Below, piece after piece: positions 29,272 to 31,901 of a DNA stretch of 64,000 bases (position 1 is the stretch's first letter; each line of letters starts with the position of its first letter). The DNA is from Chrysomallon squamiferum (lineage: Eukaryota; Animalia; Mollusca), in assembly GCA_012295275.1 (NCBI GenBank), contig CM022678.1, forward strand, positions 2,604,001 to 2,668,000, written 5' to 3'. Position numbers and translations under genes: made by a program. The notes beneath the pieces were generated by a model, which did no database searches, had not been told where the DNA came from, and saw nothing but the letters and a program-made list of their open reading frames with translations.

Positions 29272-30165
29272 CATTATCATCATCATCATCATCATCATCA
29301 TTTTTTTATGTTTTTAATTATTCTGCGCAGACTGCATCACATTCTCAGACAGCTTGATTCAAAACAGAGCCATCGTTTATTTATAATTGTTTTTTTTTTT
29401 AAAGTTATTTTTGGTCTGCCCCCCCCCCTGCATCTTGCGAGCAGTTTTCACCTGTACCTCTTACACCATCCACAACGCCAAAAATACCTCCCCAGATACT
29501 GCAACGTCTAACTCGATACTTTTCCTACCCGATAACAACAGGTTAGAGTAACTTACGCGTTTTAGCACTTTGATAGATTCTGCATGTTGGCCTTTTTTTT
29601 TCAATGTAACAAGCTTATGGTTGGGCTCTCCAAGCATGCTGGGATATCAGGTTTCATTTGTCGAGTGCCAAAAAGATTTTCAATAAAAAATAAAAATAAA
29701 AAACAACCAAGCAGACGCAGGTTACGAAAACAGCAAAACGGGGGGAAAAAATTCTTTAATAAAAATATTTTCGGGACGAAAACATGAGAAATATGTGGAT
29801 GAAGTTGGTGACTTTTGTGTTGTGTCTTTCCTCAGTGACAACGTTGCCGACGTCGAAGAAGCCGCTGACTCCGTGTCAGAACCTGAGGGAGGCGAGCAAG
29901 CACCTGCTGGGCAACTTCGTGCCGCGGTGCACGGAGAACGGGGAGTATGACAAGATGCAGTGTCGCGGGTACCCGGGTACTGGCAAGTGCTGGTGTTCCG
30001 ACATGAACGGCAGGGAGATTCCTGGAACAGCCATGGAGCAAGGGGAAATTCCAGACTGCGAACACGGTGAGTTTTTTGTTTCAAAATTGTATTTAATTTA
30101 TTTTTTTTATTTTTTTTTATTTTTTTTTTTTTATGTGTATTGTTTGTTGTATATTTTTTTATGAT

Positions 30166-30226
<61 letters not shown>

Positions 30227-31901
30227 TTTATTATCATTACTTGTTATTATTACATCACCATCAATCATCATTACTCTTTTTTTCATCATCATTATTATTC
30301 TTTATTTTTATTATTATCATGTTATTATTATTGTTATCATTATTATTTATTATTTTTATTATCATCATCATTACGTTATTATTACATTTATCATCATCAA
30401 TCATCATCATTACTGGTTTTTTTATCATTATTATTATTATTCTTTATTTTATTATTATATTATCATTATCGTTATTGTTATCATCATCATCATCATTATT
30501 ATTCTTAATTTTTTATTATTACTATCATATTATCATTATCGTTATTGTTATCATCATCATCATTATTATTATTATTCTTAATTTTTTATTATTATTATCA
30601 TATTATCATTATCGTTATCATCATAATTATTATTATTATTATTTTTTAATTTATTTTTTTTTTTTTTCAGGAAAGAATCTGCCTCCATGTGTTTTTAAAT
30701 TTATGCAGCATCTACGGAGCACCCTGCTGGGAGGTTACCGTCCACGCTGTACCCTGTCTGGAGAGTTTGAGAAGGAGCAGTGTCACGGGTCAATCTGCTT
30801 CTGTGTGGACAGCGCAGGTGACTTGATTCCAGGTACACAGGTAAACCGGTCACAGAAACCAAACTGTACAGGTGAGAAACATTTTTTTTTTAAATTATAA
30901 TAATTAATTTAAAATTTAAACACGACGTAAAATTGATGAAAAATGATAAACTGAAATGATGATAATAATAATTAGAAAAAATTATGATAATGATGATGAT
31001 AAAATGAAAATAAATATGTAAATAAAGCTATAGTGAAACTGCAAACAAAACTGTGCAGGTATGAATCATTTAATAAGTAAATAAAATTAAAAAAATACAA
31101 AAAAACCCATTGTAAAACAAAATGTCAAACAAAATGGTAAAATAAGAATATAAGAAATATAATAAATTAAAACTTCTTATTGTTCATCTTGTTCTTCTTC
31201 TTCCTATTATTATTATTACTATTATTACTACTACGATTATTATTATTATTATTACTGCTATTGTTGTTGTTGTTATTATTATTATTGTTATTATTATTAT
31301 TATTATTGTTATTATTATTATTACTACAGCTGTCACATCTAAAGTTATAATAGAAGATATGGTAACAGAAAAATCTGTACCCACTCTAAAGAAAGATAGA
31401 AAGAAGAAACCAGGACATCCAGCAGTAAGTTCTTCTTTCTTTTTTCTTTCTCTCCGACACACATACACACAGACACACAGTGCGAGACACACAAACACAC
31501 ACACATGCATACAAATGTCTCTTCGTCACTGTTATTGTTTTATTTGTTTAACACATATCTGTGTCTTGTATTACATCTCTGTTTGACATGTATGTGTTGT
31601 GTTGTCTCTGACATGTATGTGTTGTGTTGTCTCTGTTTGACATGTATGTTTGTTGTCTCTGTTTTTGACATATATATGTGTTGTGTTGTCTGTGTTTGAC
31701 ATGTACATGTTGTGTTGTCTCTGATGTATTTGTGTTGTGTTGTCTCTGTGTTTGACATATTTGTGTTGTGTTTTCTCTGTGTTTGACATATTTGTGTTTA
31801 TTTTACAGTACACAGTACAGCCTCCAGAAGACAACTCTGACAAAGATAAAAACACAGTTGATATGGTTATACCAGGCAGGATTACAGAAAAACGTCAGTA
31901 C

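Follow-up and report, generated by a model that had tools for sequence, protein, structure and literature searches.

A syndecan gene carrying a pair of thyroglobulin type-1 domains in Chrysomallon squamiferum and the wide occurrence of this architecture among lophotrochozoans

The 64,000-nucleotide stretch of the Chrysomallon squamiferum genome analysed here (contig CM022678.1, positions 2,604,001 to 2,668,000 of the forward strand; referred to as the window, on which all coordinates are counted) almost certainly carries one syndecan gene that includes two thyroglobulin type-1 (TY) domains, TY1 and TY2, and TY-bearing syndecan is ancient and widespread, not special to C. squamiferum. The initial annotation had taken the gene for a genuine syndecan that contains two TY domains, unlike the textbook ectodomain, and this is borne out by Pfam matches, an open frame and an RNA joint from the Ser-Gly exon to TY1 (table 1).

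Table 1. Exons of the syndecan gene in the window
Feature	Positions	Strand	Description
Micro-exon SPDALIDIDYYN	26260..26295	+	36 nt, phase 0-0, acidic-hydrophobic 'IDID' motif
Ser-Gly exon	27474..27600	+	four Ser-Gly amid acidic residues, predicted glycosaminoglycan sites; phase 1 at end
TY1 exon	29836..30066	+	231 nt, phase 1-1; brief Thr/Pro-rich lead, then a thyroglobulin type-1A domain of six Cys with an 8-residue loop 2
TY2 exon	30671..30871	+	201 nt, phase 1-1; thyroglobulin type-1A domain of six Cys with a 4-residue loop 2; LLG in loop 1 conserved
Stalk exon 1	31330..31424	+	basic cluster KKDRKKKP, phase 1-0
Stalk exon 2	31809..31893	+	phase 0-1
Juxtamembrane exon	32430..32528	+	ends QPGILA, phase 1-1
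TM/cytoplasmic exon	33180..33349	+	transmembrane (TM) helix with GxxxG, C1-V-C2 ending EFYA, stop codon

Both TY exons lie where they had been placed, with the predicted symmetric phase and canonical splice sites (CAG acceptors and GTGAG donors at each), and both match Pfam Thyroglobulin_1 above its cut-off (TY1: 62.5 bits, E 2.6e-17; TY2: 50.9 bits, E 1.1e-13); the TM/cytoplasmic exon matches Pfam Syndecan (PF01034) at 80.2 bits (E 1.1e-22; cut-off 25.2). The eight exons from 26260 to 33349 join into an open frame of 347 aa with no stop, with which the Gigantopelta aegis RefSeq protein P0001 (LOC121377000) aligns end to end (276/352 identical, 78%). The model has the hallmarks of a syndecan, namely one TM helix that contains GxxxG, after it C1 (RMRKKDEGSY), V and C2 (EFYA), and Ser-Gly dipeptides in acidic context in the N-terminal ectodomain (model positions 20, 22, 41 and 43). 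The two TY domains have the type-1A features of six cysteines, QC and CxC motifs and a helix plus a two-stranded sheet, with the canonical CWCV replaced by CWCS in TY1 and by CFCV in TY2. Their presence departs from the typical module-free ectodomain; this does not exclude membership of the syndecan family, since SEA-bearing echinoderm syndecans are already in print (PMC10381214). A signal-peptide exon was sought within the 64-kb window by tblastn, ATG scan and motif search and none was found, and a loose end of RNA before 26260 resembles the end of the first segment of P0001.

RNA contigs assembled from four runs of one study were compared with positions 24000-29100. In all four runs 26295 is joined to 27474 (GT..AG), and 27600 leads into the opening 30 letters of the TY1 exon, which is the junction (27600>29836) that the initial annotation had predicted. 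Sampled words of 29800-30080 were present at 66-79% in the four runs. The contigs continue past 27600 for 936, 1861 and 2551 letters in three runs and for 163 in the fourth; reaching the stop with all exons included takes 881 letters, a length that three of the four exceed, which supports the joints 30066>30671 and 30871>31330 indirectly. Three of the four contigs also start exactly 30 letters 5' of the micro-exon, perhaps by way of an allele or a splice branch. Within the Ser-Gly exon, contigs of some runs differ from the window at 27536, 27566 and 27569, most likely as alleles of other individuals. A separate, nested TY gene is rejected on the RNA that joins the Ser-Gly exon to TY1, and the many transcript-sized contigs of relatives that encode TY and Syndecan domains in a single frame also argue against it.

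Using the TM exon and P0001 as queries, searches gave 224 proteins among the matches listed (120 for each query), and a profile was built from the TY domains of these proteins. Together with two further searches (the best 150 of 726 matches, and 120 matches), the matches listed are protostome-biased and hold no named deuterostome, cnidarian, flatworm or rotifer entries. Among these 224 proteins, 73 have two TY domains, 45 have one and 106 have none. The two-domain form occurs in gastropods (Haliotis, Patella, Lottia, Littorina, Pomacea, Aplysia, Biomphalaria, Arion and others), bivalves (Solemya, Mytilus, oysters, scallops and clams), cephalopods (Octopus, Argonauta) and a chiton (Liolophura), and the one-domain form in annelids (Owenia, Capitella, Ridgeia, Paralvinella), the brachiopod Lingula and the nemertean Lineus; three mollusc records, two of them gene models and one a fragment, likewise have one TY. 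Dimorphilus and the bryozoan Watersipora have decayed remnants that score 19.8 and 16.7 bits against a Pfam cut-off of 20.6. With the tail alone as the basis of scoring, all 23 named mollusc entries among the matches listed carry Thyroglobulin_1, 22 of them with two domains. In an ESM Atlas cluster of 72 members, 100% carry Syndecan and 99% Thyroglobulin_1. Unlike the syndecan in the window, none of the 38 named arthropod proteins (some partial) or the two named nematode proteins among the matches listed has a TY domain, and echinoderm syndecans are described, in the text available, as having no TY and sometimes a SEA domain (PMC10381214). The question of whether the architecture is already recorded by automated annotation, left open at first, can be answered: RefSeq and UniRef hold it, with both Pfam domains, in at least four lophotrochozoan phyla. 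A species-specific insertion is ruled out, as TY-bearing syndecans are common to many molluscs, annelids, a brachiopod and a nemertean.

The initial annotation had further described the TY exons as skippable cassettes. This is true of the reading frame: both exons are symmetric in phase and divisible by three in length, and models without TY1 (270 aa), without TY2 (280 aa) or without both (203 aa) stay open with no stop, so the lengths calculated there were right. As a statement about use in molluscs it is not supported, no skip having been observed, and the pair is very probably constitutive in this phylum. Annotated mollusc isoforms retain both TY domains; in nine 90% clusters with 36 mollusc members, 32 have both and the other four are truncated fragments rather than skips, with the proviso that short isoforms may hide in such clusters. 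The linker between the domains is 8 residues long in 70 of the 73 two-TY proteins, and this fixed length, together with a confidently modelled linker, fits a fixed two-domain unit. The variable exon in molluscs is instead the 5' 'IDID' micro-exon: 6 of 18 compared isoform pairs differ by this segment (two Haliotis species, Pomacea, Patella, Mizuhopecten and Ylistrum), as do P0367 and P0187, and it may tune glycosaminoglycan assembly. A loose 'IDID' pattern stands before the Ser-Gly sites in 36/70 two-TY, 30/39 one-TY and 55/81 TY-less proteins, counts made without a shuffle control.

CD74 switches between p31 and p41 forms, and by analogy the TY exons might be regulated cassettes by which cells switch between a plain and a TY-bearing syndecan. 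We consider this improbable. Beyond the frame-neutral phase of both exons, it draws on gene models from Batillaria (P0181, lacking exactly the TY1 segment) and Tegillarca (P0186, lacking TY1); however, these are gene predictions, and each has a two-TY twin in its own species. It also draws on the full-length protein P0333, which is TY-less yet identical in TM and cytoplasmic sequence to the single-TY P0184, and on the similar full-length, TY-less cases P0283 and P0370. P0333 may be a lineage loss, since it is only 42% identical to P0184, and among 183 TY-less syndecans with long ectodomains it alone has an ectodomain clearly nearer to TY-bearing forms, resembling those of the single-TY, annelid-like kind; none of the 183 is a full-length, TY-less, mollusc-like protein. 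The cluster census given above and the RNA contigs, which take 27600>29836 in four of four and offer no junction from 27600 to anywhere else among the loose ends listed (contigs can miss rare isoforms), likewise speak for a constant pair. What survives of the skipping claim is the existence of TY-less annelid-like proteins and of two TY1-less mollusc models, and not cassette use in molluscs.

The phase 1-1 of the TY exons fits the gain by exon shuffling that had been suggested for them. A tree built from 68 TY domains (69 columns; the window and 42 chosen proteins) gives weak support to a group of mollusc first domains (65/91) and better support to one of second domains (91/94). The chiton sits inside each group, so both domains are likely to predate the split between chitons and conchiferans; the two one-TY mollusc models place among the second domains. 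The same tree gave no evidence as to whether TY1 and TY2 are sister copies. We infer that one TY exon may have entered a phase-1 intron 3' of the Ser-Gly exon in an early lophotrochozoan, that a second copy would have been present before chitons and shelled molluscs split, and that TY1 and TY2 would then have diverged in loop 2. The two TY domains of P0182 and P0183, with linkers of 28-30 residues and 6-residue loops, look like a separate duplication.

Other modules accompany the TY domains in some relatives. A second caenogastropod syndecan copy (P0101, P0119 and P0127; LOC143276824 in Babylonia areolata) has a PKD-like domain before two TY domains, which the Babylonia copy P0132 does not have. 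An ephrin-receptor-like Cys-rich module precedes the TY pair in P0173, and in P0193 a single TY is followed by an insert of about 100 residues that appears SEA-like by eye and has no Pfam match.

Conservation and predicted structure both single out the TY pair within the ectodomain. The mean share of the most frequent residue is 0.54 and 0.57 in the two sets of TY columns versus 0.32 in the Ser-Gly region and 0.14 in the stalk, and AlphaFold2, applied to the Gigantopelta protein together with 68 relatives, yields a pLDDT of about 88-97 over both TY domains and the linker, and under about 55 in the Ser-Gly region and most of the stalk. TY1 superposes on p41 (Z 9.3, rmsd 1.9, 62 residues aligned) and TY2 on saxiphilin (Z 10.6, rmsd 1.6, 66 aligned). 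Thyroglobulin and IGFBP domains match nearly as well (Z 8-9.6), and EpCAM/TROP2 domains are also among the structural matches; the TY fold therefore does not show inhibition. By sequence, the best solved matches after multi-repeat thyroglobulin are saxiphilin and p41, with IGFBPs and EpCAM behind. Thyropins are described as binding through three loops, of which loop 1 sets specificity (PMC6584486; PMC10889554), with its Gly and Pro proposed to be important for protease recognition (PMC10889554), and loop 2 is positioned above the catalytic cysteine in models of p41 and saxiphilin (PMC6584486). The loop-1 motif LLG-x-F/Y-x-P-R-C occurs in both TY domains of the window, where it aligns with loop 1 of saxiphilin, and family-wide in 57 of 73 second domains and 18 of 73 first domains; within TY2 the loop-1 residues have shares of 0.71 (Leu), 0.82 (Leu), 0.96 (Gly) and 0.97 (Pro). 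Loop 2 departs from the 6 residues of saxiphilin in both TY1 (8) and TY2 (4); among the 73 two-TY proteins, the first domain has 8-10 residues there in 58 and the second has 4 in 71, and a 4-residue loop 2 is also found in thyroglobulin repeats. Since 41 of the 45 single-TY syndecans have a loop 2 of 6 residues, as saxiphilin does, the single-TY form looks more inhibitor-like than the mollusc pair.

Our best explanation, held tentatively and somewhat short of an even chance, is that the TY pair forms a constant, rigid, thyropin-like head that would bind papain-family cathepsins at the cell surface; that at least one of the two domains inhibits a cathepsin is possible, again at less than even chance. 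Cathepsin capture had been proposed in the initial annotation, and it keeps its plausibility in that the nearest solved relatives include saxiphilin and p41, although the loop-2 lengths call for caution. A loop 2 of 6 residues is no absolute rule for thyropins, since a tick thyropin with altered loops and disulfides is still inhibitory (PMC10889554). Glycosaminoglycans raise or lower the potency of the tick thyropin in vitro, depending on the cathepsin (PMC10889554), which would give a reason for a TY domain to sit beside heparan sulfate. On a syndecan, the predicted heparan-sulfate chains would concentrate secreted cathepsins near the TY head, and the head would block them or slow ectodomain cleavage and shedding. 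The EFYA tail of syndecans couples to PDZ adaptors and uptake, and here it would couple the whole complex to them.

Nearly as likely is a non-inhibitory role, by analogy with the TY domains of IGFBPs and EpCAM/TROP2, which serve in protein binding: the pair would be a binding unit for a growth factor, a matrix protein or a second syndecan, and so a protein-contact surface in addition to the sugar chains. The deviation of both mollusc domains from the inhibitor loop-2 length suits such a role, as does the place of IGFBP and EpCAM/TROP2 domains among the structural matches, and a composite surface is suggested by the constant linker length along with TY2's conserved helix face. Modules that are not inhibitors occupy similar places elsewhere (PKD-like in P0101, P0119 and P0127; ephrin-receptor-like Cys-rich in P0173), as does SEA in some echinoderm syndecans (PMC10381214). 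However, among small solved TY proteins saxiphilin and p41 outrank IGFBPs and EpCAM by sequence, and no result points to a ligand. That the pair is simply a stiff, disulfide-locked spacer or protease-resistant block, lifting the sugar chains off the membrane and limiting shedding with no specific partner, is very unlikely. The near-invariant TY positions are confined to Cys, Gly, Pro and Gln, the domain is decayed in Dimorphilus and Watersipora, and some relatives lack it, all of which a spacer would accommodate; but the exposed loop-1 residues of TY2 and the domain-specific loop-2 lengths are kept across Mollusca, which is more than a mere spacer would need.

Gigantopelta aegis LOC121377000, the Haliotis 'syndecan-like' proteins and the Mytilus 'syndecan 2 / syndecan-3-like' proteins are orthologues with the same order of Ser-Gly, TY, TY, stalk, TM and EFYA; nothing essential sets these annotated mollusc syndecans apart, their names being automatic and both Pfam domains precomputed. 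We know of no folded module in a vertebrate syndecan ectodomain. Vertebrate SDC1-4, Drosophila Sdc, further arthropod syndecans and nematode SDN-1 share the Ser-Gly sites, the single TM helix and the C1-V-C2 tail with EFYA (PMC1464127), and some echinoderm syndecans likewise have a folded module in mid-ectodomain, but there it is SEA and not TY (PMC10381214). Saxiphilin Thy1-1/Thy1-2 and CD74 p41 (thyropins, MEROPS I31) are TY domains inserted in unrelated hosts that share the fold (Z 9.3-10.6) and a similar loop 1 with the window pair. The Cys-to-Cys spacing between domains is 7 residues in saxiphilin (PMC6584486) and 8 in the window, but the two-domain arrangements do not superpose (rmsd 9-10 over 112-116 residues), and inhibition, demonstrated for saxiphilin and p41, is a putative property of the window pair. 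Testican-1/SPOCK1, a TY-bearing proteoglycan, inhibits cathepsin L and is a thyropin (PMC10889554). Unlike the syndecan, testican-1/SPOCK1 is secreted, with Kazal and calcium-binding domains and neither a TM helix nor a PDZ-binding tail.

Elsewhere in the window, two coding exons on the + strand (56250-56378 and 57061-57150, their ends set by eye) encode a SERF-like N-terminus (Pfam PF04419) and a C2H2 finger, in a small gene that we take to be like ZNF706; human SDC2 and ZNF706 both lie on 8q22. A minisatellite of about 32 bases at about 56355-56900 starts within the end of the first of these exons, whose splice donor recurs in it many times. On the - strand, an open frame at 47189-47443 matches the RCC1 repeat weakly (E 0.0036; 18.3 bits against a cut-off of 21.7) and is possibly an exon of another gene, or chance.

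The architecture is already in databases, mostly under the name 'uncharacterized', and is apparently undescribed in the literature: we found no description of a TY-bearing syndecan, in a search whose coverage reached few subscription journals. In the text available, a 2006 comparative survey of syndecans has molluscs as a cytoplasmic-domain EST only and is silent on thyroglobulin (PMC1464127); neither thyroglobulin nor syndecan occurs in a paper on thyroid hormone in the oyster (PMC4692385), and the main text of a preprint on ascidian thyroglobulin (10.64898/2025.12.08.693098) does not mention syndecan. RefSeq names pieces or isoforms of this gene 'thyroglobulin-like' (P0252, Liolophura) and 'equistatin-like' (P0250, Octopus), and names such as these and 'uncharacterized' can therefore mislead transcriptome and expression studies.

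On the evidence of vertebrates, flies and nematodes, textbooks present syndecan as an unstructured core whose sugar chains do the work outside the cell; the sampled molluscs, annelids, brachiopod and nemertean mostly have a conserved folded module in the syndecan core. We hypothesize, as a less likely extension of the thyropin-like head, that a syndecan of the lophotrochozoan ancestor became a membrane-anchored inhibitor through a TY exon inserted next to the heparan-sulfate sites, in which the chains would catch secreted cathepsins, the TY head would block them and the PDZ-binding tail would internalise them, that molluscs doubled the head into two specificities and that the 'IDID' segment tunes the chains. 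If true, a core animal co-receptor would have had an undescribed role in enzyme control for half a billion years, throughout a superphylum. The architecture may also bear on wound repair, on shell-forming epithelia and on parasite proteases in farmed or disease-carrying molluscs.
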